Below, one piece after another: positions 10,142-63,814 of a stretch of DNA of 64,000 nt; the first letter of the stretch is position 1, and every line of letters starts with the position of its first letter. This stretch comes from a virus. Below the pieces are notes generated by a model, which saw nothing but the letters and a program-made list of their open reading frames with translations, searched no databases and had not been told where the DNA came from. The DNA lies in IMG/VR virus record IMGVR_UViG_3300045988_109200, positions 25,243 through 89,242 of that record. One strand, 5' to 3'. The translations under genes were made by a program, and so were the position numbers.

Positions 10142-10151
10142 GGTGAATGTG

Positions 10152-20990: not shown

Positions 20991-21075
20991 GCCAAGGTGC
21001 TGCAAATGGGAGACAGGGCGAGCCCAAACCTCGCTGTGGAAACACATGCGGTTTCGAATACCGTCCTTGGCACCA
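20991..21075 (+). tRNA. tRNA-Leu(CAA)-like, type II, CCA encoded, C33 unusual
   Basis: acceptor GCCAAGG/CCTTGGC; T arm GCGGT-TTCGAAT-ACCGT; anticodon stem GCGAG/CTCGC with loop CCCAAAC; 13-nt variable hairpin. Confidence 0.5.
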
Positions 21076-21100
21076 AAATTTAAAAACAATTTCGTTAAAT

Positions 21101-22024: not shown

Positions 22025-22062
22025 TTTTAATAGATTGAGATGCTAAATCCTCAATCTTATAT

Positions 22063-22145
22063 GCTACCATGGCGAAATAGGCAGTACGCTTCGGTCTTAA
22101 AAACCGATGTCGAAAGACGTGCGGGTTCGACCCCCGCTGGTAGCA
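22063..22145 (+). tRNA. tRNA-Leu(UAA), type II
   Basis: acceptor GCTACCA/TGGTAGC; anticodon arm TCGGT-CTTAAAA-ACCGA; long variable arm; T arm GCGGG-TTCGACC-CCCGC. Confidence 0.6.
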
Positions 22146-22152
22146 CTAATAT

Positions 22153-22228
22153 CCGGGTGTAGCTCAGTTGGTATCGCACCTGTTTTGGGAACAGGGGACC
22201 GCAAGTTCAAATCTTGTCGCTCAGGCCA
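22153..22228 (+). tRNA. tRNA-Pro(UGG)-like with weak D stem and an acceptor mismatch
   Basis: anticodon arm CCTGT-TTTGGGA-ACAGG; T arm GCAAG-TTCAAAT-CTTGT; CCA encoded; acceptor 6/7 pairs including wobbles. Confidence 0.4.
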
Positions 22229-22255
22229 GTCCGAAAGGGTATGTAGAATTTTCAT

Positions 22256-22312
22256 TCACATTATTCCCAGCTCTCTGGAAACGGAGCAGTGTGACGTAGT
22301 AAGCTGGGTATA
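22256..22312 (+). repeat. tRNA-array spacer element copy A (structured hairpin CCCAGCT...AGCTGGG)
   Basis: about 55 nt conserved with copies at 22525 and 22748. Confidence 0.5.
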
Positions 22313-22315
22313 TGA

Positions 22316-22386
22316 TGCGCCATCGCCAAGCGGTAAGGCAGAGGACTTTGACTCCTCCATCACAGGTTCGACCCCTGTTGGCGCAA
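22316..22386 (+). tRNA. tRNA-Gln(UUG) with U1:A72
   Basis: acceptor TGCGCCA/TGGCGCA; anticodon arm GAGGA-CTTTGAC-TCCTC; T arm ACAGG-TTCGACC-CCTGT. Confidence 0.6.
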
Positions 22387-22391
22387 TTTAT

Positions 22392-22473
22392 GCGGATATG
22401 GTGGAGTGGCAGACACGCCAGATTTAGGATCTGGTGCTTCGGCGTGTGGGTTCGATGCCCACTATCCGCACCA
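22392..22473 (+). tRNA. tRNA-Leu(UAG), type II, CCA encoded
   Basis: acceptor GCGGATA/TATCCGC; anticodon arm CCAGA-TTTAGGA-TCTGG; variable hairpin; T arm GTGGG-TTCGATG-CCCAC. Confidence 0.65.
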
Positions 22474-22524
22474 CGGTCATAGAATGGTTGCGTACCGTTT
22501 TGTTGATCTCCTTTGACTGCCACT

Positions 22525-22580
22525 ATTATTCCCGGCTCGCCAGTGATGGTGCAGTAGTGCTTTGTAAGCTGGGTGATTGT
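22525..22580 (+). repeat. tRNA-array spacer element copy B
   Basis: TATTCCCGGCTCGCC...GTGCAGTAGTGCTTTGTAAGCTGGG. Confidence 0.5.
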
Positions 22581-22656
22581 GCAGCTATGGTGTTAGTGGT
22601 TAGCACATCTGCCTTCCAAGCAGAGAGGGCGGGTTCGAGTCCCGTTGGTTGCTCCA
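22581..22656 (+). tRNA. tRNA-Gly(UCC), CCA encoded
   Basis: acceptor GCAGCTA/TGGTTGC (two GU pairs); anticodon arm TCTGC-CTTCCAA-GCAGA; T arm GCGGG-TTCGAGT-CCCGT. Confidence 0.6.
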
Positions 22657-22747
22657 ATCTCGTATGGGTAGGATTTTTAGCGGTCAAATCCGGCTGCGCC
22701 TGTGCGAGATACCACCCCGAAATGGGCTAACGAAATTTTTCATGTGC

Positions 22748-22803
22748 GTTATTCTCGGCTCGCCCGAAAGAGTGCAGCGTGCCTTTGTAAGCCGAGTATC
22801 CCA
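22748..22803 (+). repeat. tRNA-array spacer element copy C (compensatory stem CTCGGCT/AGCCGAG)
   Basis: TTATTCTCGGCTCGCC...GTGCAGCGTGCCTTTGTAAGCCGAG. Confidence 0.5.
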
Positions 22804-22837
22804 GCCTAGTGATGCCAGTTGCTAGGTTGGTTCTTAT

Positions 22838-22913
22838 GCGACTGTAGTTCAATTGGTAGAGCGTCAGATTTCCAATCTGAATGTTGCGAGATCGTCCCCC
22901 GTCAGTCGCTCCA
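22838..22913 (+). tRNA. tRNA-Gly(UCC)-like second copy, noncanonical T loop, CCA encoded
   Basis: acceptor GCGACTG/CAGTCGC; D arm GTTC-AATTGGTA-GAGC; anticodon arm TCAGA-TTTCCAA-TCTGA. Confidence 0.5.
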
Positions 22914-23044
22914 CACGCAGCCCCTGACGCTGCACCGGTTGCTCAGAGCCGAAAGGAACCTATATGTTACGACATGGTTGCCAAGAGTGATCATATTGGA
23001 ACGCGACGTAGCTTTGATAGTAGGAATTAAATTCTGAGGTATAC

Positions 23045-23113
23045 GGCTGGATAGCTTAATGGTAAAAGCGCTCGGAAACACCGAGAGATGAGGTTCGATC
23101 CCTCCACTGGCAT
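23045..23113 (+). ncRNA. tRNA-like element (pseudo-tRNA?)
   Basis: canonical D arm TAGCTTAATGGTAAAAGC and T arm GGTTCGATCC, but a 5-bp stem with 5-nt loop replaces the anticodon arm and no complementary acceptor 3' strand. Confidence 0.3.
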
Positions 23114-23140
23114 CGCGCCGACGAAAGTTGGCGTTTATAT

Positions 23141-23216
23141 GGAATAGTAGCTCAGCTGGTTAGAGCCGACAACTTATAATTGTCAGACACGAGTTCAAAT
23201 CTCGACTATTCCACCA
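23141..23216 (+). tRNA. tRNA-Ile(UAU), CCA encoded
   Basis: acceptor GGAATAG/CTATTCC; D arm GCTC-AGCTGGTTA-GAGC; anticodon arm GACAA-CTTATAA-TTGTC. Confidence 0.6.
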
Positions 23217-26403: not shown

Positions 26404-27504
26404 ATGGCAGATAGAATTTTTAACCTTCCTCAGACCCGTGGTTCTTTTGAAATGGCTGGTAAGGTCACCGGCACCCAGCGTAGCAACTTCTATAACGAGA
26501 AGGAGACTAAGAGTGGTGTTATGCGCCGTGTCCTGAGCTTTGGTATTCAGACTTCCAATGAAAACACTTTCTATGTTGATCTGGCTGGTATGCCTCGTGA
26601 TAAGGTTTACTTCTTCCGCCGTGCCGATAAGGACAAGGGCATCGAGAAGGATAAGAAGGAAGTCGCTTGGAAGGATCGTCTGACTTATGTTGCACCGGAA
26701 GGCTACGACATGATTGGCGTTAAGGTTGGTGTTACCAAGAAGACGAATGAGTCTGGTAAGGTCGTCAACGACAACAAGACTCTGACCGACTTCGATGCAG
26801 CTAAGGAGATTTCCGAGAACCTGCATGACGGTGACAACGTGTATGTCCGTGGCAACATCGAGTACAGCACTTACAACGGCAAGCACCAGATTCGCTTTGT
26901 TCCTACTCAGGTTTCTCTGAGCTCTAAGGAAATTGACTTCGATGCAGAGGGTTTCGAGGAGCTGGCTCTGTTTACTCAGACCATTGTTTACACTGGTTGC
27001 CGCAAGAGCGATGAGTGCGATGAGGTAGTTGTCGATGCAAAGATCGTGAACTACAACACCATCGAGGATGCAGAGTTCTTCATTGACTATAAGGCAAACA
27101 CTCAGAATAAGGTTCTGGCTGATTCTATTCGTAAGCGTCTGAAGTCTTATACTAGTTTCGAGTGTTTTGGTCCCATCGTTAATCAGCAGAAGGTTGAGGA
27201 AGTTGAGACTGAGAATATCTGGGGTGGTCCTAACAAGATGAAGCGTCAGAGCACTCCGGCAGTTCGTAAGCTGTATATCGAGGGTGTTAATCCTGATTCC
27301 TTTGATCCGAATCCCGGCGATAAGGATGCAGAGTCTACCTATACTGAGGACAATATCTCCGAGGCACGGGCAAAGATTGCTGCCAACGCTCAGGCTAAGA
27401 AGGACTTCGATGGCAAGGCAGCTGAGAACGATACTTCTTGGTGGGGTGGTTCTAACAAGTCCACTGTGACTTCTGCTGATGAGGAAGATATCAACTGGGG
27501 CTAA
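26404..27504 (+). CDS. putative ssDNA-binding protein (366 aa)
   Basis: position ahead of recombination/replication genes; acidic C-terminal tail ending DEEDINWG; strongly biased codon usage; no diagnostic motif, so tentative. Confidence 0.35.
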   Translation: MADRIFNLPQTRGSFEMAGKVTGTQRSNFYNEKETKSGVMRRVLSFGIQTSNENTFYVDLAGMPRDKVYFFRRADKDKGIEKDKKEVAWKDRLTYVAPEGYDMIGVKVGVTKKTNESGKVVNDNKTLTDFDAAKEISENLHDGDNVYVRGNIEYSTYNGKHQIRFVPTQVSLSSKEIDFDAEGFEELALFTQTIVYTGCRKSDECDEVVVDAKIVNYNTIEDAEFFIDYKANTQNKVLADSIRKRLKSYTSFECFGPIVNQQKVEEVETENIWGGPNKMKRQSTPAVRKLYIEGVNPDSFDPNPGDKDAESTYTEDNISEARAKIAANAQAKKDFDGKAAENDTSWWGGSNKSTVTSADEEDINWG

Positions 27505-27881: not shown

Positions 27882-29042
27882 ATGGCTATTGTTTGTGATG
27901 CATCTGCTATTCGTAAGAAGCTTCGTATGCTTGTGTATGGTGAGCAGGGGACTGGCAAGTCTCGTTTTGCTATGCAGTTCTGCTACATGAAGACTCCTGA
28001 AGGTCGTCCGTTCCGTGTTCTGTATCTGGATACTGAGTCTGGTTCTATCGACGATTATCGTGAGGAACTGATGGAGAATGGGCTCGACCCGATGAATCTC
28101 CGTATCGTTTATACTCAGTCTCTCGCAGAGGTACAGGATTTCATCCATACTGTTGCAGATAATGAGGACTTCGAGGATGAAGATGGTAACGTTTGGCTGG
28201 ATGCAGATGGCAAGCCTTTCCGTGCTGACGCTATTGTTGTTGACTCCGCAACCATTCTTAATCTAACCACAAAACAGGGTTTGACCAATTTCTCGCAGAA
28301 GCGTGCAAAGGTTAAGGCTGCAGCACAGGGTCTGACCGGCGATGAGAAGTCGGTGAAGATTGAGGGTGCTGGTATGGAACTGAAGGATTATCAGCAGCTG
28401 AACTTTAAGGGTCAGTCCCTGATTCTGGATCTGAATGCAACTGGTGTGAGTTACATCGTCATTTGCCGTGAGAAGGATGAGACTGAAACCAAGCTGGTGA
28501 ATGGTTCTTCTGTGAGCGTTTCTACTGGCCGCAAGATTCCTGATGGCTTCAAGGGTCAGGAGTACAATGTCGGCACCGAGTTCCGTATGTATCATCCCGG
28601 CGATGATAAGTCTATCAACTTTGCTTATTTTGATAAGGATCGTACCGGTGTTCATAATGGCGGTGAGGTTGTCGAAGACCTGACTCTGCTTGAGTATCAG
28701 GAGTATCTTGACCGCTCTGCAAAGAACCGTGAGGTCATTATCAAAAATGGTCTGAATGATGCAGTTAAGACCGAGATGAAGCTTCGTGCTCGTGAGCTTG
28801 GTCTTGACGACAATGATATCAGTGATGATGCTCCTGCAGAGAATACTTCCGAATCCAAGGAGCCTTCTCTGGACGACATCAAGGCAAAGCTGAACGATCT
28901 GATTGCTTCCGCTTCTCCTGTGAAGAAGAGTGCAGCACAGAAGGCAGTTAAGGCGGCTGGCCTGTCTACCGCATTCCGTTCCATGACTGACATCGAGGAA
29001 CTGAAGAAGGTTGCCGCAATCATGGAGAAGGAACTGGCTTAA
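27882..29042 (+). CDS. RecA-fold AAA_24/Sak4-like ATPase (386 aa)
   Basis: Walker A YGEQGTGKS; Walker B-like IVVDSATIL. Confidence 0.55.
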   Translation: MAIVCDASAIRKKLRMLVYGEQGTGKSRFAMQFCYMKTPEGRPFRVLYLDTESGSIDDYREELMENGLDPMNLRIVYTQSLAEVQDFIHTVADNEDFEDEDGNVWLDADGKPFRADAIVVDSATILNLTTKQGLTNFSQKRAKVKAAAQGLTGDEKSVKIEGAGMELKDYQQLNFKGQSLILDLNATGVSYIVICREKDETETKLVNGSSVSVSTGRKIPDGFKGQEYNVGTEFRMYHPGDDKSINFAYFDKDRTGVHNGGEVVEDLTLLEYQEYLDRSAKNREVIIKNGLNDAVKTEMKLRARELGLDDNDISDDAPAENTSESKEPSLDDIKAKLNDLIASASPVKKSAAQKAVKAAGLSTAFRSMTDIEELKKVAAIMEKELA

Positions 29043-44832: not shown

Positions 44833-45624
44833 ATGGTAGTTAAACTGATTACACATACTCCTGATCCTGAAAAGGTAGTAGCTGCAGCCGCAAAACTGTG
44901 TTACTCCAATTCGAGTATTCAGGATCTGATGGATGGACTGACCGATGAGAAGGTCGATGAGTTTCTGAATCGGCTTTCTAGCCTTGGTCACGCTAGCCCT
45001 ACGGAGCATGTGACTTTTACTTTTGGAATTGAAGGTGTGAGCCGGTCTTTGCTTGCCCAGATTACTAGGCATCGCATTGCATCGTTCAGTGTGCAGAGTC
45101 AGCGCTATGTGCGAATGAATAATGCTGAAATCATCATTCCTGATGTTATTGACGATGATAGCGAAGCAAGAGAGGTATTTGAACAGGCAATTCAGACTGC
45201 TGAATATTCCTATAAGCACCTGTGCCAGATTCTTGAGGACAAGATTACTGAGGAACTGATGGTTGCTGATTCTCGTTTGACTGAGAAAAAGGCACGTGCA
45301 AAGGCATCTAAGATTGCAAATGAGAATGCACGTTCTGTTCTTCCAAATGCTTGTTCTACAAAGATGATTGTTACAATGAACGCTCGTTCGTTGAATAATT
45401 TCTTTAATCTGCGTTGCTGTGAACGTGCACAGTCTGAAATCAGGGAACTTGCAACTGAGATGCTAAAGCTTGTCTATCCGATTGCTCCTCATCTGTTTAA
45501 GTGTGCTGGCCCCAACTGCTGTGGTAACGGTTGTACTGAAGGTATGATGTCTTGTGGTAAGCTCCACGAGATTCGTGATAAATACGACAAACTGAAACAG
45601 GAGGCATTAAATGCAAACACTTGA
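44833..45624 (+). CDS. thyX: flavin-dependent thymidylate synthase ThyX (263 aa)
   Basis: ThyX signature RHRIASFSVQSQRYV. Confidence 0.85.
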   Translation: MVVKLITHTPDPEKVVAAAAKLCYSNSSIQDLMDGLTDEKVDEFLNRLSSLGHASPTEHVTFTFGIEGVSRSLLAQITRHRIASFSVQSQRYVRMNNAEIIIPDVIDDDSEAREVFEQAIQTAEYSYKHLCQILEDKITEELMVADSRLTEKKARAKASKIANENARSVLPNACSTKMIVTMNARSLNNFFNLRCCERAQSEIRELATEMLKLVYPIAPHLFKCAGPNCCGNGCTEGMMSCGKLHEIRDKYDKLKQEALNANT

Positions 45625-46051
45625 CGAAATTAAGAAGAATGTCGAGCACCCGGCTCATTACGGCGGTGCAGACAATCCCTATGAAGCAATTAAAGTGCTG
45701 CGAGAGTGGCAATTAGACGAGGATGCTTATCTCTGGAATGTTGGTAAGTATCTGAGCCGGGCAGGACACAAAGATGGTAATTCCCCGCTTCAAGATTTAA
45801 TGAAGGCACGTTATTATTTGGACTATAAAATCCGGCTTTTAGAGGAACAGCAGAAGGTTGCTGAAAGTGTCGTAGATACGCTCAAGAAAGTCCCTAACGA
45901 GGTAACTGATAAGCTGACTACGATGTCGGATTACATTCCTCGTCATGCAAAGCCCGACTATACGGATGATTTGGTTTTCTGTCCAGAAATCCATGCTCCA
46001 AACATCGAAACTGCCGTGGTCCCTGATTGTGCCGATGAGGTCAAGTTTTAA
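45611..46051 (+). CDS. DUF3310-like phage protein (146 aa)
   Basis: HPAHYGG...PYEAI motif common next to phage thyX. Confidence 0.4.
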   Translation: MQTLDEIKKNVEHPAHYGGADNPYEAIKVLREWQLDEDAYLWNVGKYLSRAGHKDGNSPLQDLMKARYYLDYKIRLLEEQQKVAESVVDTLKKVPNEVTDKLTTMSDYIPRHAKPDYTDDLVFCPEIHAPNIETAVVPDCADEVKF

Positions 46052-46064
46052 GAGGTTTACATAA

Positions 46065-46154
46065 ATGAGAATGAGATACAACTGGGAAGAACCATTTGCG
46101 GCATTTGCCCTGTTTGTTACAATGTTGATTTTTGGCTTTGCCAAATTTTTTTAA
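46065..46154 (+). CDS. tiny TM peptide (29 aa) upstream of the flotillin gene
   Basis: ATG after agaggtttacataa; hydrophobic. Confidence 0.3.
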   Translation: MRMRYNWEEPFAAFALFVTMLIFGFAKFF

Positions 46155-46175
46155 GATAATCAAGGAGAAAAACAT

Positions 46176-47699
46176 ATGAATATGATGTTTATTGCAATTC
46201 CTGTCGTTGTTGTCCTTCTGATCGCCTTTGCATTTACTTGTTATAAGAAGGCTCCTCCGACTCAGGCAATCGTTGTGACTGGCTTTGGACTGTCTAAACC
46301 GAAGGTTATCTGTGGTCGTGGTGTGTTCGTCCTGCCTGTTATTCAGCGAGCTGACCGTCTGAATATGCGACTGCTCAAGATTGATGTCAAGACTCCTGAG
46401 ACCGGTGTTAAGACTAAAGAAGGCGTTTCTTTGTGGTTGGACTCTGTTGTTACTGTTCAGGTTTACTCTGAAAACTCTACTGTAACTGATGAGGAAATCA
46501 AGAGTGCGGGCTGTGCAGATGCCAAGACCTATATCAGTGCCCGTCAGCAGGCTGCTATTTCTAACTTCCTTGGCATGAGCGAAGATGGTATCAACGAGAA
46601 GATTAACGATGTCCTGCAGGGTAATCTGCGTGAGATTGTTTCTGAAATGACTGTCAACGACATTCTGACTAACCGTAAGCAGATGGCTATCTCTGTTGTT
46701 GAGAATGCTCGTCCTGATCTTGCAAAGATGGGTCTGGAGGTTGTTACCTTTAATGTTCAGGACATCAAGGATGCTATTGATGCTCAGGGTCATAATCACG
46801 GTGTCATCGAGGCAATTGGTGTTCAGCAGGAAGAATTGGTGAAGAAGCAGGCTGAAATTGCTAAGGCAGAAGCTGCTCGTGACATTGCTCGCGCAAAGGC
46901 TGATACTGCCCGTGAAGCAAACGAGAAGGAAATCGAGTCCAAGACTGCTATTGCCCAGCGCAACAATGAGTATCTGCTGGCTCAGGCTGCTCTAAAGACT
47001 AAGGCAGATAGGGCAAATGCTGATGCTGAGGCGGCTGGTCAGATTCAGATGAACCTCCGTGACAAGGAAATTAAGGAAGCTGAAGCAGATGCAGCTATTG
47101 CACAGCAGAAAAAGATGGTTGAATTGGCTGCTAAGGAAGCAGAAGTTCGCCAGCAGAAGCTGGATGCGGAAGTTCGTAAGCAGGCAGATGCCGACCTGTA
47201 TAAGCGTCAGAAGGAAGCTGAAGCAAAGAAGTACGAGGCGGAGCGTTCTGCAGAATCCGCAAAGTTCGCTAAGGAACAGGAAGCAGAAGGTATCCGCATG
47301 GTCGGTATGGCAGAAGCTGAGGCCATCAAGCAGAAGGGTCTTGCTGAAGCAGAAGCTATGCTGAAGAAGGCTGAAGCTTACAAGCAGTATAATGGTGCGG
47401 CCATGGGCGAAATGATCATTAAGATTCTCCCTAGCATTGCAGCTGAGGTTGCAAAGCCGCTGGCGTCCATTGATAAGGTTTCCATCATTGGCAGTAACGC
47501 AAATGGTGTTTCTGAGATTTCCGGCAATGTCCCGGCAGTCATGGCTCAGACTTTTGAGGCCGTTCGTGAAGCAACTGGCATTGATATGAAGGAAATTGTC
47601 CGTGCCAACAGTTACGATGCAAAGGTCACTAAGAATGTGAACCTTGTAAGCGATTCGACGATTGTTTCTGAAAAGAACGATGTGCAGGATGCTGAGTAA
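46176..47699 (+). CDS. flotillin-like SPFH/band-7 membrane protein (507 aa)
   Basis: N-terminal TM; SPFH domain; long EA-rich coiled coil. Confidence 0.7.
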   Translation: MNMMFIAIPVVVVLLIAFAFTCYKKAPPTQAIVVTGFGLSKPKVICGRGVFVLPVIQRADRLNMRLLKIDVKTPETGVKTKEGVSLWLDSVVTVQVYSENSTVTDEEIKSAGCADAKTYISARQQAAISNFLGMSEDGINEKINDVLQGNLREIVSEMTVNDILTNRKQMAISVVENARPDLAKMGLEVVTFNVQDIKDAIDAQGHNHGVIEAIGVQQEELVKKQAEIAKAEAARDIARAKADTAREANEKEIESKTAIAQRNNEYLLAQAALKTKADRANADAEAAGQIQMNLRDKEIKEAEADAAIAQQKKMVELAAKEAEVRQQKLDAEVRKQADADLYKRQKEAEAKKYEAERSAESAKFAKEQEAEGIRMVGMAEAEAIKQKGLAEAEAMLKKAEAYKQYNGAAMGEMIIKILPSIAAEVAKPLASIDKVSIIGSNANGVSEISGNVPAVMAQTFEAVREATGIDMKEIVRANSYDAKVTKNVNLVSDSTIVSEKNDVQDAE

Positions 47700-47710
47700 G
47701 AGGTGATTAC

Positions 47711-49906
47711 ATGGAATATGTGATTAAACGCGATGGAACGAAAGTTCCTTTTGATAAAAGTAAGATTGTAAATGCGATTGAGAAGGCGATGACGAATACG
47801 ACTGGAGGAGTTGATTCTCGCGTGTCTAATGCTATTGCAGACTACATCGCAGACGTCCCTGATACGATGTCTGTGGAGCAGATTCAGGATGTAGTTATTG
47901 ACCAGTTGAAAAATAGCCCTCTTTCGGATGTGGCTGACGCTTATAGTCACTGGCGTATTCTTCGGCAGGAGATTCGTGAGAAACAGCGAGCATATGGCGA
48001 AATTCTTTCCATCTGTGATGTAGACAATGAGAAGGTCAAGCAGGAAAACAGCAACAAAAATCCTGTTGTGAATAGCGTGCAGCGTGACTATATGGCTGGC
48101 GAGGTCTCCAAAGATCTGAGCTTCAATCTGCTTCTCCCGAAAGATATTGTGGACGCTCACTATGATGGCCGAATTCATTTTCACGATTCCGACTATTTTG
48201 CCCAGCACATGTTTAACTGCTCGCTAGTCAATCTGGAAGACATGCTTCAAAACGGCACTGTGATTTCTGGCACTGGAATCGACAAACCACATAGTTTCTC
48301 TACAGCGTGCAATATTGCAACCCAGATTATTGCACAGGTTGCTTCCAACCAATATGGTGGTCAGAGTATTACTCTGTCTCATTTGGCTCCTTTCGTGGAC
48401 GTCTCTCGAAAGAAGATTACGGGTGAAGTCCATGAGGAGTTTTACGACATGATTCAAAACAATGAGATTGACAAGATGCCAAATCAGGAGACTATCAATC
48501 GAATTGTAGAGAAGCGTTTACATAAAGAAATCGTTGCAGGCGTTCAGACTATTCAGTATCAGGTTATTACTTTGATGACCACTAACGGGCAAGCTCCTTT
48601 TATTACTGTTTTTATGTATCTGGATGAAGTTCCTGAAGGCCAGACCCGTGATGACCTTGCAATTATCATTGAAGAAGTCCTTCGTCAGCGTATTAAAGGC
48701 GTGAAGAATGAGACTGGTGCATGGATTACTCCGGCTTTCCCAAAGCTGATTTATGTGCTGGAAGAAGATAACATTCGAGATAATTCTAAGTATTACTATC
48801 TGACTGAACTGGCAGCTAAATGTACTGCCAAGAGGTTTGTGCCCGACTACATTTCTGAGAAGAAGATGTTGGAATACAAGGGTGCTTGCTATCCTTGCAT
48901 GGGCTGCCGGAGCTTCCTGACCCCTGATCGAACCACCGAGAATATTTCTGGTGCCATGAATTGGGAAAAGGGTCACAAGTACTATGGTCGCTTTAATGCC
49001 GGTGTTGTCACCATCAATCTGGTAGATGTTGCTTGTAGCTCTAAGAAGGATGTTTCTGAGTTTTGGAGAATTTTTGATGAGCGTCTTGAACTGTGCCATC
49101 GAGCACTTCAGATTCGGTATAAGCGATTGATGGGTACGCCTTCTGATGTGAGTCCAATTCATTTTCAGCAGGGTGCAATCGCACGTTTGAAGAAGGGCGA
49201 GAAGATTGATAAATTGCTGTTTGACGGATATGCAACCATCAGTTTAGGTTACGCAGGTCTGTATGAATGCGTAAAGTACATGACCGGTAAGAGCCATACT
49301 GATGATGAAGCAAAACCTTTTGCTCTTGAGATTATGCAACACATGAACGACAAGTGCAGTGAGTGGAAGGCAGCAGAAAATATTGATTACAGTCTCTACG
49401 GCACCCCGCTGGAATCTACCACCTACAAGTTCGCCAAGTGCCTGCAAAAGCGGTTCGGCATCATTCCAGATGTAACCGACCATGATTACATCACCAATAG
49501 CTATCATGTCGTGGTTCGTGAGCATATTGATGCATTCAAGAAGCTGAAGTTTGAGTCTGAGTTCCAGCAGCTGTCTCCCGGAGGAGCGATTTCTTATATT
49601 GAATGCCCGAACATGACCAACAACATCCCAGCTGTGATGAGTGTCATCAAATACATCTACGACACTATTATCTACGCAGAGCTGAACATCAAGTCTGATT
49701 ATTGCCAGATTTGTGGCTATGACGGCGAGATTAAGATTGTTGAAGATAACGGCAAGCTCGTTTGGGAATGCCCGAACTGTGGTAATCGTGACCAGAATAA
49801 ACTGAATGTTGCACGACGTACCTGCGGTTTTATTGGGACTCAGTTTTGGAATCAGGGGCGGACGCAAGAGATTCGTGATCGTGTGGTTCATTTGAGCGAT
49901 AACTAA
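47711..49906 (+). CDS. nrdD: anaerobic ribonucleoside-triphosphate reductase NrdD (731 aa)
   Basis: ATP-cone N-terminus; C-terminal CPNCG zinc site; glycyl-radical motif RTCGFIG. Confidence 0.9.
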   Translation: MEYVIKRDGTKVPFDKSKIVNAIEKAMTNTTGGVDSRVSNAIADYIADVPDTMSVEQIQDVVIDQLKNSPLSDVADAYSHWRILRQEIREKQRAYGEILSICDVDNEKVKQENSNKNPVVNSVQRDYMAGEVSKDLSFNLLLPKDIVDAHYDGRIHFHDSDYFAQHMFNCSLVNLEDMLQNGTVISGTGIDKPHSFSTACNIATQIIAQVASNQYGGQSITLSHLAPFVDVSRKKITGEVHEEFYDMIQNNEIDKMPNQETINRIVEKRLHKEIVAGVQTIQYQVITLMTTNGQAPFITVFMYLDEVPEGQTRDDLAIIIEEVLRQRIKGVKNETGAWITPAFPKLIYVLEEDNIRDNSKYYYLTELAAKCTAKRFVPDYISEKKMLEYKGACYPCMGCRSFLTPDRTTENISGAMNWEKGHKYYGRFNAGVVTINLVDVACSSKKDVSEFWRIFDERLELCHRALQIRYKRLMGTPSDVSPIHFQQGAIARLKKGEKIDKLLFDGYATISLGYAGLYECVKYMTGKSHTDDEAKPFALEIMQHMNDKCSEWKAAENIDYSLYGTPLESTTYKFAKCLQKRFGIIPDVTDHDYITNSYHVVVREHIDAFKKLKFESEFQQLSPGGAISYIECPNMTNNIPAVMSVIKYIYDTIIYAELNIKSDYCQICGYDGEIKIVEDNGKLVWECPNCGNRDQNKLNVARRTCGFIGTQFWNQGRTQEIRDRVVHLSDN

Positions 49907-49920
49907 ACAAAGGATAAAAT

Positions 49921-50253
49921 ATGGATACTACACAACAGATTTTAGAGCGAGATTGGGATAATGGTTTTGTTAAAAAGATGCAGAATCGTATTTTAGTATC
50001 TCATTATAAATATGGTTGGATGAATCAAACATATCCAGATTTAGCTCAAGCTGTAAAGGAAATTTATCCAAGAGTCAAAAAGTATTTAGAGACAGGAAAT
50101 ACAGAATGGCTCATTGATGTTGCTAATTTTGCAATGATTGAGTATTTACATCCGAGTGTTGTTGGAGCGTATTTCAAAGGAACGGATAGCGAAGAGTCTC
50201 CGGGACTGACAAGTGGAATCAGCTACAAAGAACTCGAAGAGAGCATGAAGTAA
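49921..50253 (+). CDS. hypothetical protein (110 aa)
   Basis: ORF track. Confidence 0.45.
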   Translation: MDTTQQILERDWDNGFVKKMQNRILVSHYKYGWMNQTYPDLAQAVKEIYPRVKKYLETGNTEWLIDVANFAMIEYLHPSVVGAYFKGTDSEESPGLTSGISYKELEESMK

Positions 50254-50289
50254 AATTTGAATATAAGTGGTGGGTTGGTGGGATTACTT

Positions 50290-50367
50290 ATGAAAGAAAT
50301 CATTGTTTTCTTTGTGATCGTGTGGGTTATCGCCTATTACATTCTAAAAGATGACTACAAAGATTAA
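50290..50367 (+). CDS. tiny TM peptide (25 aa) upstream of the SPFH gene
   Basis: ATG 50290; hydrophobic. Confidence 0.25.
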   Translation: MKEIIVFFVIVWVIAYYILKDDYKD

Positions 50368-50377
50368 GGAGATACTT

Positions 50378-51229
50378 ATGAAGAAATTTATGGCAATTTT
50401 TGTTGCATTCCTCGTTGCGATTGGCGCGGTGCTTTGTACTGAGCGGGTACATACTGGTTATGTTGGTGTTGTTTACTCCGCAAAGGGAGTTGAGCAGCAG
50501 ACCATTTCTCAGGGCTGGCACTTTATGAGTCCTCTGAAGCATGTATCTGAGTTCCCGATTACTCAGCAGCGAGTGGTATTCTCTAACGCTCCGTCTGATT
50601 ATGGTGCAAAGGAACACGCAGATTGGCACATTGACGCTCCTGCAAATGGCGGTACAATTGCAATCAACCTGACTGTCAATTATAACTTCCTGCCGGAGCA
50701 TGTTATTGAACTGTATACCAAGTTTGGTGGCATGGATGGCGAGAGCCTGATGGAGAGCAAGATCCAGAACGATATTATTGCTTACGTCAAGGAAGTTACT
50801 CCTCAGTTCAGTGTCATGCAGATTTATTCTGATGATCGCGCAGGTGTTAATACTGCAATCACCAACTATTTGAATGAGAAGCTGACCGCAGAGTATGGAA
50901 TCAATGTCTCTTCCGCACTGATTGTTGACGCACAGCCTGATGATACCCTGATGCAGAAGATTCGTGCCAAGGAGCAGGCGAAGCAGGATGCAGAGATTGC
51001 AGAACTGAATAAGCAGACTGCTCTGGCTCAGGCAGAGACTGATAAGGTTAAGGCACAGACGGAAGCTGACGTTAAGATGATTGAAGCACAGGCCGAGGCT
51101 GACGCAAACAAGGTGCTTTCTGAATCCATCACGCCTGAGCTGATTCAGATGAAGGAAGCAGAAGCTCGTCTGAAGCATGGCTGGGTTACCGTACAGGGTG
51201 CTGATACTGTCGTTACCAAGGGTGAATAA
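50378..51229 (+). CDS. SPFH/prohibitin-like membrane protein (283 aa)
   Basis: ttaaggagatactt SD; N-terminal TM; band-7 domain; coiled coil. Confidence 0.6.
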   Translation: MKKFMAIFVAFLVAIGAVLCTERVHTGYVGVVYSAKGVEQQTISQGWHFMSPLKHVSEFPITQQRVVFSNAPSDYGAKEHADWHIDAPANGGTIAINLTVNYNFLPEHVIELYTKFGGMDGESLMESKIQNDIIAYVKEVTPQFSVMQIYSDDRAGVNTAITNYLNEKLTAEYGINVSSALIVDAQPDDTLMQKIRAKEQAKQDAEIAELNKQTALAQAETDKVKAQTEADVKMIEAQAEADANKVLSESITPELIQMKEAEARLKHGWVTVQGADTVVTKGE

Positions 51230-51275
51230 ATAACATCTATTGGATTACATTCGTATTCCAAAAGGAGGCTTAATT

Positions 51276-51545
51276 ATGATTATTACAGGTATGGTACATT
51301 ACGAGAGCGTTTGTAAGAACGCACTGGTTAAGTGGTACAACGAGCATATGTCCAATAAAATTACGCTGGAGAACGTCTTTGTGGTTTGGAGTTGCAAGAC
51401 GCTCCAGAACTACAAGGCGCTGCTTTCTACCACCGTCAGCGGTGACGGTATCTATGCTGAGTACACCTACAACGGTGATAAACAGGAACTGTATGAGGAT
51501 GTGTACAAGAAACTGACCAACCAGTGCATTAAAAAGGAACTATAA
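51276..51545 (+). CDS. hypothetical protein (89 aa)
   Basis: aaaaggaggcttaattATG. Confidence 0.4.
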   Translation: MIITGMVHYESVCKNALVKWYNEHMSNKITLENVFVVWSCKTLQNYKALLSTTVSGDGIYAEYTYNGDKQELYEDVYKKLTNQCIKKEL

Positions 51546-54299: not shown

Positions 54300-54737
54300 A
54301 TGGATACTAGCTTTAATTTAAAGCACGTTCCCGGAAGCTTTGCATGGATTATTGAGCGAGAGAATGCCGACAAAAACTGTAATAAATGTGATACCAACGG
54401 AAATGTGAATATAACATTCTTTGACGGTACTCAGAAAAAGTGGCGTTGCCCAATTTGCCTTGGATACAAAAAGGTTGTAAAAGACGTATATCGAATCAAA
54501 AAATGTAAAATCAAGAGAGTAAACATCGGAGCAAGGATTAACGAAGATGGCAATTTAACGGTAGAAGAAGAATCTATTCAACTAGAAGGAACCAACACAA
54601 GGGACAATATCGATCCTGATTTTGAGTATTACATTCGTAATATTTATGACACAGAAAGTGATGCGAAAATTGCGGCAAACGAAATCAATAAAGCACGAGG
54701 GAACACTGATGAATTATATGAAGATTGTCCCATGTGA
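54300..54737 (+). CDS. hypothetical Cys-rich protein (145 aa)
   Basis: ORF track. Confidence 0.45.
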   Translation: MDTSFNLKHVPGSFAWIIERENADKNCNKCDTNGNVNITFFDGTQKKWRCPICLGYKKVVKDVYRIKKCKIKRVNIGARINEDGNLTVEEESIQLEGTNTRDNIDPDFEYYIRNIYDTESDAKIAANEINKARGNTDELYEDCPM

Positions 54738-55263
54738 TATAGCGAATGGTCCGGGCGTAAGAGTCACGTTATTCTGTGCTGGTTGCAATCACCATTGCCC
54801 CGGTTGCCAGAATCCTACTACATGGGACCCGAATGGTGGTCAGCCATTCACAGAAGAAACGCTTGATAAAATTGTAGATTTACTTCGACCTGATTATATT
54901 CAGGGGCTTACGCTTACTGGTGGAGACCCACTGTATCCAGAGAACAGGGAGATGATTTGCAAAATTCTAATAAGAGTCAGACACGAGTTTGAAGGAAGCA
55001 AAGACATTTGGATGTGGACTGGATATACATGGGAAGAATTGATTCAACAGGCGGCAGAAGAATTGGAATATCAAACTATTCCGACAACGGTAACAATTAT
55101 TCGAAACATAAACGTGCTAGTCGATGGCCCATATATTGAATCTAAACGAGATATCTCTTTGCCGTACATGGGGAGTTCCAATCAACGTGTAATCGGCTGT
55201 AATAAGAGTTTTGCTTTGCGAAGACCAGTCCTTTGGTGGACTCCAGAAGAGAAAGGAAAATAA
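54709..55263 (+). CDS. nrdG: anaerobic RNR activating protein NrdG (184 aa)
   Basis: radical-SAM cluster CNHHCPGC; NGPGVRVTLF typical of NrdG. Confidence 0.8.
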   Translation: MNYMKIVPCDIANGPGVRVTLFCAGCNHHCPGCQNPTTWDPNGGQPFTEETLDKIVDLLRPDYIQGLTLTGGDPLYPENREMICKILIRVRHEFEGSKDIWMWTGYTWEELIQQAAEELEYQTIPTTVTIIRNINVLVDGPYIESKRDISLPYMGSSNQRVIGCNKSFALRRPVLWWTPEEKGK

Positions 55264-55264
55264 C

Positions 55265-55798
55265 ATGGATTTAGGAAACACAACTATTAATCTTGGCTAT
55301 GGCATGAGTCAGATGCCGTATCGCCCCAACATTAAAATCAACAAATTGCACGATGACGCTCATCTGCCGACTTATGGTTCTGCAAATGCTGCTTGTGCAG
55401 ACCTGTATGCCTATATTGGTTTTGATGATGCAACGATGGTAAACAAGAATGGCGATCGTTGTATTATGATTCAGCCGCATGAGACCGTTAAGGTACATAC
55501 TGGTTTGCGAATGGCTCCGCCGGAAGGTTGGTACATTCAGGGCTTCGCCCGCAGCGGTCTTTCCACAAAGCAGGGACTTGCACCTGTAAACGCTGTGCCA
55601 ATCATCGACCAGGATTATCGTGGAGAGATCATTATTCCTCTCCACAACTATTCCAACATCCCGCAGATGATTACTCATGGCGACCGCATTGCTCAGATGG
55701 CAGTTGTTCCGTTTTGGCAGGCTGATTTTGAAGAAGTTTCCAAATTGGACGAAACTGAGCGTGGAGCCGGTGGGTTTGGTTCTACTGGAAAACAGTAA
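55265..55798 (+). CDS. dut: dUTP diphosphatase (177 aa)
   Basis: dUTPase motifs ARSGLS, IIDQDYRGEI, GDRIAQ. Confidence 0.8.
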   Translation: MDLGNTTINLGYGMSQMPYRPNIKINKLHDDAHLPTYGSANAACADLYAYIGFDDATMVNKNGDRCIMIQPHETVKVHTGLRMAPPEGWYIQGFARSGLSTKQGLAPVNAVPIIDQDYRGEIIIPLHNYSNIPQMITHGDRIAQMAVVPFWQADFEEVSKLDETERGAGGFGSTGKQ

Positions 55799-61564: not shown

Positions 61565-62392
61565 ATGATTAATGACTGCAAATCTATTGCACAAGATATC
61601 AAAAACAAAATTAAAAATATTATCGCAGAAGATGACTATGCTCCTATTTTACATATTTATCAAGTAGGAGACAACCCTGCATCCAACGCTTATATTCGCG
61701 GCAAGCTGCGTGACTGTGAAGAGGTTGGAATCGAAGCGGAGCTTATCAAGCTGTCAGAAAATATTACTGAAGATGAATTGAACAACAAGATCTTAGAAGA
61801 TTATAATTGGGAATATGTGGACGGTATCATTGTTCAGCTTCCGTTGCCAAAACATATCAATCCTAAAAATATTTGTATTCCAGATGAACTTGATGTTGAT
61901 GGCTTTAATTCAACATCCGAATTTCAGCCTTGCACTCCGCTTGGCGTTATGAAAATTTTCGATGCGATTGATTATGATCTGGACGGCAAGAATGTGCTTG
62001 TGTGTGGTCAATCTGATATCGTAGGTCGTCCGCTAGTCGATATGCTGATCAGGAGACACTGTAATGTGATCTCTGTTAATAGTACTGGCTCCCGCATGAA
62101 GGCTACAGCTTTTGGATTTGGAATGGTCGATGTCGTCGTTTCTGCTGTTGGAAAACGCAACTTTATCACGCCAAGAGAATTAGATCAAGTTGAAGTGTGT
62201 ATCGATGTTGGTATCAATTATGATGATAATGGGAAACAGCACGGTGACTGCGCTGACGCTGTTTATGATATGAAAGATATCAAAGTGACTCCTCGAATCG
62301 GTGGGGTTGGACTAATGACACGCGCCATGCTACTTTATAATGTATGTGTAGCGAAATATGGTGAGTATAAGATGGAGAAGGTGATTGAATGA
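61565..62392 (+). CDS. folD: bifunctional methylenetetrahydrofolate dehydrogenase/cyclohydrolase FolD (275 aa)
   Basis: YIRGKLRDCEEVGI and GxSxxVGRP-type NAD(P) and substrate motifs typical of FolD. Confidence 0.8.
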   Translation: MINDCKSIAQDIKNKIKNIIAEDDYAPILHIYQVGDNPASNAYIRGKLRDCEEVGIEAELIKLSENITEDELNNKILEDYNWEYVDGIIVQLPLPKHINPKNICIPDELDVDGFNSTSEFQPCTPLGVMKIFDAIDYDLDGKNVLVCGQSDIVGRPLVDMLIRRHCNVISVNSTGSRMKATAFGFGMVDVVVSAVGKRNFITPRELDQVEVCIDVGINYDDNGKQHGDCADAVYDMKDIKVTPRIGGVGLMTRAMLLYNVCVAKYGEYKMEKVIE

Positions 62393-62583
62393 AAGAAGTC
62401 CCAATCTGGGAAAAAACGACGCTTACTGTGGAAGAAGCCGCTGCGTACTCTAATATCGGCACACATAAATTAAGAGAAATTACAGACAAGGACGACAAGC
62501 AGCTTGTGCTGTGGGTTGGATCAAAACGCTTGATTAAACGCAAAGCACTTGAAAAATACATAGACCAGTCTTATTCGATTTGA
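62389..62583 (+). CDS. xis: Tn916-family excisionase Xis-like (64 aa)
   Basis: PIWEKTTLTVEEAAAYSNIG..KLRE....LIKRKALEKYID closely parallels Tn916 Xis; overlaps folD stop. Confidence 0.7.
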   Translation: MKEVPIWEKTTLTVEEAAAYSNIGTHKLREITDKDDKQLVLWVGSKRLIKRKALEKYIDQSYSI

Positions 62584-62656
62584 AATCAGAGCTTTGGTGT
62601 GGTATACTTATAGTGTCACATCAAGGCTCTTTATAGTAAATGTAAGGAGTCTGTTT

Positions 62657-63814
62657 ATGGAAAGACGTAAAGATAGTAAAGGTAGAGTCTTAAAAGACGG
62701 CGAAAGCCAAAGAAAGGATGGAATATATCAATATCGATGGACTGATACAACTGGAAAACGTCACACAATTTATGCGAAAGATTTAAAAGTTCTTCGAGAA
62801 AAAGAAAATAATGCTAGTAAAATAATTTCTCAAAGGATAAACTTTGAAGGCGGTAAAATAACAACATATCAGTTTCTTATAAGATATTACGAATTTAAAA
62901 AAACATCAATAAAGAAATCGAGCTTGAAGACATATCATACAACAATAAACAAGTTGAAAGATACGTCTATTGGTAATACAAAAATTATTGACGTAAAGAT
63001 TTCAGACGCAAAACAACTGATTATTGATTTTAGTCAGAATGGGTTAAAATACAGTACAATAAAAACTATAAAAACACTGATAAAAGCTGCGTTTAAAATG
63101 GCTCAAGAAGATGATTTAATTTTAAAGAATCCGTTTGATTTTCAGCTGAATGAAGTTATAAAAAACGACACTAAAAAAAGAGTCGCATTAACTGAACAAC
63201 AGTATTCTGATTTGCTTGAATTCGTTTTATGTGATCAAGTCTTTCGTAAGTATTATGATGACATCGTATTTTTGTATGAAACTGGAATTCGCGTAAGTGA
63301 ATTTTGTGGATTAACACTTTCGGACATTGATTTTGTGAAACATGAAGTTGTAATTGATAAACAACTCATCAAAACCTCAAAAGGAGAACTCTACATCACA
63401 GATCCAAAATCAAAAGCTGGGTTTCGGACGATTCCATTGAGCGCTGAAGCATATCACGCGATTAAAGCCATTATCAATCGTCGGCCACAAACAAACGAGA
63501 TGATGGTCGATGGTTATTGTGGTTTCATCTCAATTCATTCAAATGGAACCCCGAAGACCTCTTGGAACATTGAATATGAGCTAAGAGAAATTGCAAAGGC
63601 GTATAACAGCCTTTACCCAGAGTGCCAATTACCAAATCTTACACCTCACGTTCTTCGACACACTTTTTGTACCAGAAAAGTTAGCAGCGGCATGAACATC
63701 AAGGCAGTTCAATATCTAATGGGGCATAGCTCAGTACAAATTACGCTCGATGTATACACATCAATCGACGCTGATATGATAAAAACTGAGTTTGCAAAAG
63801 TGGCACAGATGTGA
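62657..63814 (+). CDS. int: Tn916-family tyrosine integrase (385 aa)
   Basis: N-terminus MERRKDSKGRVLKDGESQRKDG and C-terminus LRHTFCT...MGHSS...LDVYT (HxxR, Y) match Tn916 Int. Confidence 0.85.
   Translation: MERRKDSKGRVLKDGESQRKDGIYQYRWTDTTGKRHTIYAKDLKVLREKENNASKIISQRINFEGGKITTYQFLIRYYEFKKTSIKKSSLKTYHTTINKLKDTSIGNTKIIDVKISDAKQLIIDFSQNGLKYSTIKTIKTLIKAAFKMAQEDDLILKNPFDFQLNEVIKNDTKKRVALTEQQYSDLLEFVLCDQVFRKYYDDIVFLYETGIRVSEFCGLTLSDIDFVKHEVVIDKQLIKTSKGELYITDPKSKAGFRTIPLSAEAYHAIKAIINRRPQTNEMMVDGYCGFISIHSNGTPKTSWNIEYELREIAKAYNSLYPECQLPNLTPHVLRHTFCTRKVSSGMNIKAVQYLMGHSSVQITLDVYTSIDADMIKTEFAKVAQM

Follow-up and report, generated by a model that had tools for sequence, protein, structure and literature searches.

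Two independent SPFH gene cassettes around nrdD in a temperate gut phage: a conserved micro-protein gene before one and a putative lemA remnant before the other

Background

What use does a phage have for two genes of the SPFH (band-7) membrane scaffold family, placed on either side of its anaerobic ribonucleotide reductase gene, and are the tiny hydrophobic open reading frames (ORFs) that stand before each of them partner genes? The question is raised by a 64,000-nucleotide (nt) stretch of DNA (the window; positions 25,243 to 89,242 of the IMG/VR virus record IMGVR_UViG_3300045988_109200), in which a gene for a 507-amino-acid (aa) flotillin-like protein and a gene for a 283-aa prohibitin-like protein (SPFH2) flank nrdD and are preceded by ORFs of 29 aa (mORF1) and 25 aa (mORF2), respectively. 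A previous interpretation (the sequence-only reading) had described each SPFH gene as preceded by a small hydrophobic ORF reminiscent of a minimal partner. Here we report that the two SPFH genes are independent cassettes, that mORF2 is a conserved companion of SPFH2, and that mORF1 appears to be a remnant of a lemA gene.

The window covers the part of a large temperate phage genome that serves replication and nucleotide metabolism. Encoded here are a DnaB-like helicase, a primase, a PolA-type polymerase, a RecD-like helicase, a ligase and a Pnkp/RNA ligase, as well as ThyX, NrdD/NrdG, dUTPase, FolD, eight tRNAs and a Tn916-type integrase, which together with Xis at the window end marks the element as temperate. 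Relatives in IMG/VR are 125-140 kb long. The 283-aa protein is also found on metagenomic contigs of up to 667 kb, which points to a prophage. The region lies in a dense operon of DNA-metabolism genes; the phage, a temperate one from the gut with a genome of about 130 kb, is seen here as a prophage, and its host is probably a member of the Clostridia, possibly of the Oscillospiraceae.

Independence of the two SPFH genes

The two SPFH genes, the two small ORFs and nrdD are all present where the sequence-only reading had placed them (Table 1), and Shine-Dalgarno (SD) motifs back their starts: AGAGG precedes mORF1, AAGGAG the flotillin gene and GGTGG mORF2, and for SPFH2 the start at 50378, with its AAGGAG, is better than the longest-ORF start at 50351. 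The Pfam matches of nrdD likewise bear out its identification between the SPFH genes.

The prevalence of the genes was determined in a sample that was drawn without bias, with the DNA ligase gene as anchor, and gave 62 informative relatives. The flotillin gene was present in 12 of them (19%) and SPFH2 in 48 (77%), the cassette after nrdD being the majority state, and only four relatives (6%) had both. Because relatives with both genes, with flotillin only and with SPFH2 only were all observed, we regard the two genes as independent cassettes and not as a conserved pair. The sequence-only reading had proposed to look for a conserved flotillin-nrdD-SPFH order, and had stated that its absence from relatives would count against a common role; with the trio in 4/62, this is largely what was found. 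Furthermore, nrdD itself exists as three alleles among the relatives, 99%, 81% and 28% identical to the window copy. In IMG/VR, 242 stretches match the prohibitin-like gene and 22 match the flotillin gene.

SPFH proteins had also been called unusual cargo for a phage. This applies only to the full-length flotillin type, which occurs in 10 of 50,697 phage records; the prohibitin-like type was found by tblastn in 505-509 of them, including those of Staphylococcus Kayvirus, Bacillus, Enterococcus and Streptococcus phages and haloviruses. SPFH ORFs were tabulated in T4-like phages in 2006 (PMC1524935), and the function of MbpS, the SPFH protein of Kayvirus, has only been guessed at (PMC7150955).

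Table 1. Genes of the region (window coordinates) and small transmembrane (TM) proteins encoded next to distant SPFH genes
Feature	Coordinates	Strand	Size	Evidence or placement
DUF3310 gene	45611..46051	+		Pfam DUF3310 2.3e-11; left border of variable slot
mORF1	46065..46154	+	29 aa	putative lemA 5' stub, N-terminal TM helix only
FloT-type flotillin	46176..47699	+	507 aa	Band_7 (PF01145) 8.4e-20 (72 bits; cut-off 23.6), Flot 3.3e-8
nrdD, anaerobic ribonucleotide reductase	47711..49906	+	731 aa	NRDD 9.5e-189, ATP-cone, Gly_radical
110-aa gene	49921..50253	+	110 aa	no family match; variable, in most loci only with 99% nrdD allele
mORF2, single-pass membrane micro-protein	50290..50367	+	25 aa	conserved partner of downstream SPFH2
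SPFH2, prohibitin/HflK-type	50378..51229	+	283 aa	Band_7 9e-23 (81.7 bits; cut-off 23.6), phrog_200 4e-55
DUF6275 gene	51240..51545	+		Pfam DUF6275 1.2e-30; variable, minority of relatives
nrdG (NrdD activase)	54646..55263	+		Pfam Fer4_12 1.9e-47, Radical_SAM 1e-10; 4.7 kb from nrdD
Amboise partner			59 aa	upstream, overlapping
Thrax1 partner			24 aa	upstream
Kayvirus partner MbpV			102 aa	upstream, overlapping
PBS1 partner			47 aa	upstream, overlapping
MT835469 partner			54-68 aa	upstream
MT835474 partner			54 aa	upstream
Sundance partner			51 aa	upstream
Listeria LWP01 partner			51 aa	upstream, unannotated
SEP9 partner			91 aa	upstream
Bacillus wiedmannii prophage (L133) partner			52 aa	upstream, overlapping
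L218 partner			51 aa	upstream
L219 cluster partner			59 aa	upstream
Enterococcus EA1 partner			67 aa	downstream, overlapping
Halovirus HRTV-10 partner			44 aa	downstream
Caulobacter BL57 partner			116 aa	multi-TM; upstream, overlapping

The mORF2-SPFH2 cassette

Of about 80 loci, nearly all have mORF2 at a constant distance of 88 nt on the upstream side of the SPFH2 start, irrespective of whether the 110-aa gene or one of the nrdD alleles comes before it, and the differences among the mORF2 copies are mostly at third codon positions. Of its polymorphic changes 13 are synonymous and 11 are not, a ratio of non-synonymous to synonymous polymorphism (pN/pS) of 0.19 (binomial p=8e-5); SPFH2, with a pN/pS of 0.03, is under strong purifying selection. 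In three loci (L095, L097 and L098) in which an SPFH gene 78-89% identical lies in a wholly different neighbourhood, a TM ORF of 24-26 aa with its own SD motif is still present; the equivalent in a further locus, L294, is MKEIVTLFIIVFGISFTIIYNIFGGKK, and the TM ORFs across such divergent contexts measure 24-27 aa. mORF2 is therefore a real gene, under purifying selection and co-inherited with SPFH2 in every context. Its stop codon overlaps the AAGGAG of SPFH2; the two genes are probably translationally coupled. A G-rich leader, TAAGTGGTGGGTTGGTGGGATTAC (window 50262-50289), lies directly upstream of mORF2. It hardly varies among about 80 loci, irrespective of the preceding gene, and in this behaves like a component of the cassette; it may be only the ribosome-binding region or else a regulatory element.

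We surveyed distant SPFH2 homologues (22-49% identity) for an adjacent gene for a small single-pass TM protein. Such a gene was found in 17 of 22 SPFH lineages, the window family and L294 counting as two lineages, and there was one fusion-like case in addition: the SPFH protein of Arthrobacter phage Richie has two N-terminal TM helices, one extra, and looks like a partner fusion. The lineages with a partner range from Firmicutes phages to haloviruses, and the partner gene often overlaps the start or stop of the SPFH gene (Table 1). When one stringent automatic rule was applied, 7 of 10 SPFH genes were positive as against 3 of 67 other genes (Fisher p=5e-6), and two of the three control positives were matches to the same small ORFs. 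The partners from LWP01, PBS1 and MT835474 have a common motif, (S/K)(P/H)(L/H)F-x-(K/Q)IG(K/R), after the helix. Thus, the suggestion of a tiny TM peptide as operon partner holds for mORF2, on the grounds of co-inheritance, selection and recurrence in distant phages.

A described counterpart of this two-gene layout is MbpV-MbpS of the Staphylococcus phages K, A5W and MSA6 (Kayvirus; PMC7150955), in which MbpS is a full-length homologue of SPFH2 at 22-26% identity and an overlapping gene for a single-TM protein (MbpV) precedes mbpS. However, MbpV has a long charged tail whereas mORF2 is almost tailless, and the Kayvirus pair lies beside lysis genes, the window cassette beside nrdD. The operons of SPFH and NfeD genes (QmcA-YbbJ, PDB 8z5g; PH1511-PH1510) also join an SPFH scaffold gene to a gene for a small membrane protein, with probable co-translation. 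NfeD, in contrast, has a C-terminal OB-fold and in some cases a protease domain, whereas the phage partners consist of one TM helix with or without a charged tail; moreover, NfeD pairs with the stomatin and flotillin classes of SPFH proteins and not with the prohibitin class (PMC2636767). The likeness of the small ORFs to NfeD or YqiJ, which the sequence-only reading had suggested, was not borne out: mORF1 and mORF2 have no Pfam match and are too short for an OB-fold, no match to NfeD (PF01957) was found at E<=1 among ten longer phage partners, and we rejected this identity.

The description of SPFH2 as prohibitin-like is supported by its Band_7 match and by its closest relatives in profile and fold. 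As a single sequence it had no direct match to a PDB sequence. A profile of 14 phage homologues matched the PDB sequences of prohibitin (1.9e-22), erlin (7.6e-18), HflK (1.6e-12) and stomatin (1.3e-7), and also QmcA. An AlphaFold2 model built with 45 diverse homologues (mean predicted local distance difference test score 85.8) has a TM helix at residues 2-20, an SPFH domain, a 62-residue helix at 189-250 and a short helix at 253-267, and its best Foldseek matches in the PDB were full-length PHB2/PHB1, erlin, HflC/K, stomatin and QmcA, all of them protomers of rings or cages. SPFH2 is thus a prohibitin/HflK-type SPFH protein with a single N-terminal TM anchor, an SPFH domain and a long coiled coil, and the only gene of the prohibitin-HflK/C class seen in the region examined. 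It shares with the prohibitin, HflK-HflC and erlin cages (SPFH3/SPFH4 class, PMC2636767) this plan of the protomer, including the short C-terminal helix; its predicted orientation, N-in with the SPFH domain outside the cytoplasm, would also agree with theirs. In contrast to them, it is a single phage-encoded gene instead of a pair such as HflK and HflC or PHB1 and PHB2, and has a micro-protein as its neighbour, whereas no operon partner has been described for cellular SPFH3/4 proteins (PMC2636767).

The predicted orientation follows from the positive-inside rule: the N-terminal flank is rich in K/R in 14/14 homologues, so that SPFH2 would be N-in/C-out with its SPFH domain on the outer face of the membrane, as in HflK/C and prohibitin. 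The partners of at least 44 aa mostly have K/R just after the helix and are predicted to be N-out/C-in. The label of lipoprotein, which PHROG 200 carries, was rejected for the window protein, since it has A-V-L-C, with L at -1, and hence no canonical lipobox (here [LVI][ASTVI][GAS]C at the end of the signal peptide). Its homologues in Firmicutes phages mostly have L, M or T at -1 or no Cys; the Caulobacter phage copy alone has M-S-A-C, a lipobox-like MSAC followed by G, which is consistent with the outward orientation.

The variable slot before nrdD and the flotillin gene

mORF1 and the flotillin gene occupy a slot between nrdD and the DUF3310 gene, which is kept in all relatives immediately 5' of it. 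The usual content of the slot is a gene for a 185-aa LemA protein (PF04011 8.1e-34, residues 44-178) that starts MRYNWKLPIIV..., followed by a gene for a 258-aa protein with TM segments at both ends. Among the 62 relatives, 42 (68%) have LemA, eight a 30-aa stub or nothing and 12 flotillin, and SPFH2 is present in 37/42, 7/8 and 4/12 of these, respectively. A wider set of loci falls into the same three classes (LemA, about 58; 30-aa stub, 13; 29-aa stub with flotillin, about 21). In flotillin-less relatives with the stub, the 30-aa ORF MRYNWEYPLVALMLLAMIMTFWFSKVVLRI takes the place of mORF1 directly before nrdD. In a DNA alignment the SD motif, the ATG and the first five to six codons (MRYNW) are identical in the lemA, 30-aa and 29-aa states, and divergence begins right after them.

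Because mORF1 has the SD motif, the ATG and MRYNW in common with the lemA of the same slot and such an ORF also occurs without flotillin, mORF1 appears to be the leftover 5' stub of a replaced lemA gene and not a dedicated partner of the flotillin. The resemblance to the N-terminus of phage LemA covers the MRYNW...P motif and the TM helix; mORF1 spans no more than this N-terminal TM part and has nothing of the LemA domain (PF04011), which occupies residues 44-178 in the 185-aa protein. Polymorphism shows no significant constraint on the stubs: the 29-aa type has a pN/pS of 0.57 (p=0.31) and the 30-aa type one of 0.31 (p=0.054). The stub of one locus (L012) has a frameshift, and in the window allele 6 nt are duplicated (MRMR) and the loss of 1 nt has shortened the C-terminus. 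Both small ORFs are physically present, as the sequence-only reading had it, and hydrophobic enough for a single membrane helix, but their origins and their support differ. The suggestion of an operon partner fails for mORF1, given its lemA-like start, the 30-aa version directly before nrdD in relatives without flotillin, and the lack of demonstrable selection. By eye, no convincing similarity to the TM-coding part of the stub was found in the 3' end of the 258-aa gene of locus L003. Some relatives (L001 5792-5878; L003 4609-4695), but not the window, have another hydrophobic ORF, of 28 aa (MRNENDTYLIFVIFFFIIVPGLALMAFR), which separates the DUF3310 gene from the stub or from lemA.

The 507-aa protein was correctly recognized as flotillin-like. 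Besides the Band_7 match, it has a Flot (PF15975) match of 34.1 bits against a cut-off of 27, aligns with the FloT model NF058507 over positions 5-474 of 477 (5e-76), and aligns with human flotillin-1 over residues 6-434 (1.7e-48). However, its score with the FloT model is 256.6 bits against an equivalog cut-off of 700, and so the protein is a member of the flotillin family but not an ortholog-level match to B. subtilis FloT. It resembles FloT/YuaG and FloA, which have NfeD partners (YuaF; FloA-NfeD, PMC11222466), in its end-to-end alignments with the FloT model and human flotillin-1/2 and in its N-terminal hydrophobic segment with basic residues after it. It differs from them in the lower score noted above, in the absence of an adjoining NfeD or YqiJ gene in the window, and in the setting of its closest cellular relatives. 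There is no basic residue before the hydrophobic segment and YKK after it, which suggests that the SPFH domain is cytoplasmic, as in FloT. If both topology predictions hold, the flotillin (cytoplasmic) and SPFH2 (outer) would act on opposite faces of the membrane. In two other phage records, csAssE-Sib (L214 1899-2393) and a contig of 'Enterococcus phage Efs 1-1-1' (L216 1879-2412), a gene for a 164-177-aa multi-TM protein lies directly upstream of a flotillin gene; its architecture recalls YqiJ/NfeD, but it has no Pfam match, and the csAssE-Sib protein has an acidic DxDxD loop.

The flotillin is 75-79% identical to cellular flotillins of gut Clostridia. In a metagenome-assembled genome of Subdoligranulum variabile the homologue is solitary, beside a MATE transporter gene. 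In a locus of the 'Clostridium sp. TM06-18' type (L102) it is the last gene of a cluster in the order LemA, 254-aa protein, 120-aa protein and flotillin, and the identities of the phage proteins to their counterparts there are 52% (LemA), 38% (258-aa protein) and 76% (flotillin). From this cluster and these identities, the phage slot appears to carry alternative pieces of one host membrane gene cluster; phage locus L003 keeps LemA, the 258-aa protein, flotillin and nrdD in order, without the stub. Flotillins 75-78% identical also occur on other mobile-looking contigs. The flotillin gene of the window is an accessory gene, probably captured from a Clostridia host. It is strongly constrained inside the phage lineage (pN/pS 0.05 from 12 distinct full-length alleles with 329 synonymous changes), and this purifying selection is long-standing; no inactivating mutation was seen in the natural alleles of the 18 IMG/VR loci that supplied these 12. 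Its G+C content (GC) is 47.5%, as against 51% in the closest cluster homologue, and the whole Subdoligranulum locus has 56%.

Codon usage and expression

The sequence-only reading had noted codon preferences in the two SPFH genes markedly different from those of surrounding genes. Both genes are indeed rich in CTG (0.54 of Leu codons in flotillin and 0.71 in SPFH2; window mean 0.22, standard deviation 0.20), CGT (0.67 and 0.40 of Arg codons; 0.32, 0.23) and GGT (0.62 and 0.50 of Gly codons; 0.44, 0.19), but the bias is not peculiar to them, being common to nrdD, thyX and the genes at 7700-9016, 26404-27504 and 27882-29042. A signal of horizontal transfer in the codon usage was therefore rejected. 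The eight tRNA genes of the window (20991-23216; Leu-caa, Leu-taa, Pro-tgg, Gln-ttg, Leu-tag, two Gly-tcc and Ile-tat) all decode codons ending in A/T, which suggests an AT-rich phage that supplements the tRNAs of a more GC-rich host. Because the bias is shared with other genes and the phage tRNAs all read A/T-ending codons, the usage is more plausibly host-like and expression-related than a mark of foreign origin of the two SPFH genes; the CTG-rich genes may simply match the codons preferred by the host.

The intergenic gaps in the region are 10-36 nt (nrdD starts 11 nt past the flotillin stop), and promoter- or terminator-like sites show no excess over the shuffled expectation. Both SPFH cassettes are thus probably co-transcribed with the early genes, and signals of an autonomous moron were rejected. 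Rfam matches were confined to the tRNA cluster. At the 3' end of mORF1 (window 46131-46154), just before the flotillin SD motif, there is a weak terminator-like hairpin, TTTGGC-TTT-GCCAAA with a T run; its stem is only 6 bp, and sites of this kind are no more numerous in the region than expected.

Functional interpretation

The genetic architecture described above, with independent cassettes, a lemA stub and a real mORF2 partner, we hold to be highly probable. The analysis shows what the genes are, their population genetics, how the cassettes are built and that the partner recurs; an oligomeric cage, the topology, a contact of SPFH2 with the micro-protein and all functions proposed below are inferred. 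Our explanation distinguishes a core module, mORF2 and SPFH2, from an accessory one in the hypervariable slot. In the core module, SPFH2 would be anchored by its one N-terminal helix on the outer face of the host membrane and, by analogy with its solved relatives, assemble into a ring or cage, with mORF2 as a small subunit beside the anchor helices. In the accessory module, a Clostridia-derived FloT-type flotillin on the cytoplasmic face would have replaced the pair of lemA and the 258-aa protein gene, leaving the lemA 5' stub as mORF1; flotillin, or LemA with the 258-aa protein as its alternative, would serve as an accessory membrane-homeostasis module. The products would be made together with those of the early and middle DNA-metabolism genes, and both modules may serve to control the membrane proteins of the host and to keep its membrane intact in the lytic phase. 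A general role of this kind we regard as evenly balanced. The likeliest specific mechanism would be that SPFH2 fences off a membrane patch and controls access to an FtsH-type quality-control protease, like HflK/C and prohibitin; it is tentative, and we would rather doubt it than affirm it. Access to a protease or ligase is controlled by all of the relatives HflK/C, prohibitin and erlin (PMC2636767; PDB 7vhp, 8rrh), the enzyme being a ubiquitin ligase in the case of erlin; a role in protease access was proposed for prokaryotic prohibitins by Hinderhofer et al. in 2009 (PMC2636767), who also note that such prohibitins seldom occur together with HflK/C and that no NfeD partner is known for them. 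For the flotillin module, the comparison is with FloA-NfeD, which holds unfolded membrane proteins (PMC11222466). Taken as a whole, this explanation is the best we have, and we place it slightly on the probable side.

Several points weigh against it. The involvement of FtsH is purely an analogy. The family is also present in strictly lytic phages and adjoins lysis genes in Kayvirus, and thus one single function for the family is not assured. No adjacent partner was detectable in 4/22 lineages (phi3396, J3S, L132 and L242), the partners fall into several unrelated PHROGs without an assigned function, so that 'partner' may denote an analogous class rather than a single family, and the charge distribution of the minimal partners of 24-27 aa is ambiguous. 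The 29-aa and 30-aa stubs are 48% identical over their whole length with the hydrophobic helix kept in both, and the 29-aa stub accompanies flotillin even in a locus with a different upstream flank (L010); mORF1 may therefore retain a residual function. The negative association of flotillin with SPFH2 among the relatives (Fisher p=2.9e-4) comes largely from one clade and is weak evidence of redundancy. In the literature there is no experiment on any phage SPFH protein, nothing functional was found on LemA with flotillin or on mbpS, and a paper of 2026 still calls the reason for the presence of SPFH proteins in phages unclear (PMC13239085).

One alternative is superinfection exclusion or prophage defence, in which SPFH cages made by the lysogen alter the membrane against incoming phage DNA or take part in abortive infection. 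The temperate nature of the element, with its Tn916-type integrase and Xis, would fit, as would the predicted outward face of SPFH2, where injection occurs, and in Streptococcus prophages the homologue lies beside regulatory genes annotated as immunity repressor and transcriptional activator. However, the flotillin, SPFH2, the 110-aa protein and DUF6275 have no match in PADLOC-DB at E<=0.01, so the suggested defence or anti-defence module found no model to match; the genes are embedded in the nucleotide-metabolism operon without promoter- or terminator-like signals of their own, unlike typical morons; and the module is common in strictly lytic Kayvirus and in 130-170 kb phages of Enterococcus, Bacillus and Brevibacillus, in which expression from a lysogen is impossible. 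We consider this alternative decidedly unlikely, and the same holds, to the same degree, for a role in lysis timing, according to which holin- or antiholin-like small proteins are corralled by the SPFH cage so as to delay or trigger permeabilisation. The longer partners, with one TM helix and a charged C-terminal tail, were indeed compared to holins by the Kayvirus authors (PMC7150955), mbpV-mbpS lies between lysK and tgl, and in Proteus phage J3S the SPFH gene is about 1 kb upstream of the endolysin gene. Against this, the cassette of the window and of most sampled phages stands among nrdD/nrdG, thyA, dut, ribonucleotide reductase, ligase and polymerase genes, the window partner is almost tailless with its 25 aa, and no endolysin gene is near the window cassette.

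The sequence-only reading itself, that both small ORFs are minimal NfeD/YqiJ partners and that a flotillin-nrdD-SPFH unit organises replication or the synthesis of deoxyribonucleoside triphosphates at the membrane, is very improbable and is largely refuted by the synteny. SPFH genes do lie beside nucleotide genes in unrelated phages, namely EA1 (thyA-nrdG-SPFH), Thrax1 (SPFH-DUF1653-RNR, i.e. ribonucleotide reductase), Sundance (dut ... SPFH ... thyA-DHFR) and Richie (SPFH-NrdH), and the joint movement of the 29-aa allele with flotillin in L010 also speaks for such a unit. The neighbourhood is the only basis of the nucleotide link, however, and its recurrence in the window and in these four phages is most simply shared temporal expression. 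In addition, each of the trio is gained or lost independently and nrdD is swapped among alleles, mORF1 is homologous to the LemA N-terminus and is found without flotillin, flotillin occurs in L003 without the stub, and none of the partners contains an NfeD domain; NrdD is soluble, and the enzyme is not known to require a membrane. The least probable of the alternatives is that the flotillin (perhaps SPFH2 too) is a recently acquired passenger with no role in the phage. Its accessory distribution in a recombination hot slot and its close cellular homologues are as such a history would have them, but the long and strong selection on the phage alleles, a GC ameliorated to below that of the closest cluster homologue and the presence of homologues on other mobile-looking contigs argue otherwise.

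The two-module explanation of membrane homeostasis may be extended further, in a form that we think unlikely, if a little less so than the exclusion and lysis alternatives. Phage prohibitin-type SPFH proteins and their micro-proteins would then be a widespread, hitherto undescribed two-component membrane cage, from Firmicutes phages to haloarchaeal ones, with the SPFH ring outside and the partner helix and tail reaching the cytoplasm, by which phages would seize the membrane quality control of the host or weaken abortive-infection effectors that target the membrane; the LemA/258-aa/flotillin cargo would be a co-opted LemA-flotillin membrane-stress unit, and both faces of the membrane would be armed.

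The gene families and their presence in phages were already documented. The generality of a small TM partner for prohibitin-type phage SPFH proteins appears to be new, as does the link between LemA, the 258-aa protein and flotillin. A prohibitin-type SPFH protein with a nearly constant small single-pass protein is a defined two-gene unit, and as no operon partner is known for cellular SPFH proteins of the prohibitin class, the phage system may reveal one. LemA, a two-TM protein and flotillin stand in for one another in a single slot of the phage and form a cluster in a bacterial relative, which offers a first functional lead for the LemA family. A caution also follows: because one of the two 'partner peptides' appears to be a recombination scar, adjacency alone is not evidence of partnership.

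Neighbouring genes and other observations

The 110-aa gene after nrdD has no Pfam, PHROG or NCBIfam match. In two relatives nrdD is longer than the 731 aa of the window copy, at 1024-1040 aa (L001 7536-10658; L003 7536-10610), which may reflect an intein or other insertion. Many relatives have after SPFH2 a gene for a 56-aa two-TM protein (MKIFANILGFILSWFITVLILYGVWKMLG...; L001 11643-11813, L108 10867-11037) at the place of the DUF6275 gene of the window; thus, the downstream border of the SPFH2 cassette is a variable slot too, rich in small membrane proteins.

Further along the window, nrdG is followed by a dUTPase/dCTP-deaminase gene (54646-55798), and the gene for FolD (methylene-THF dehydrogenase/cyclohydrolase) lies just before the Tn916-type integrase gene at the prophage end (61565-63814). 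Two more integrase-like ORFs lie inside the element, at 10131-10970 and 17654-18580 (phrog_216 1.2e-40; phrog_5830 2.3e-10). Some prophage copies (L108, L110 and L112, 3147-4322) contain an IS110-family transposase gene (DEDD_Tnp_IS110/Transposase_20) that has entered the group of small genes before thyX and lies on the minus strand, opposite to them. In three unrelated phages, Amboise (L105), Caulobacter phage BL57 (L126) and Proteus phage J3S (L128), a gene for an RNA ligase or of the RtcB type is either adjacent to the prohibitin-type SPFH gene or at most about 1 kb away.

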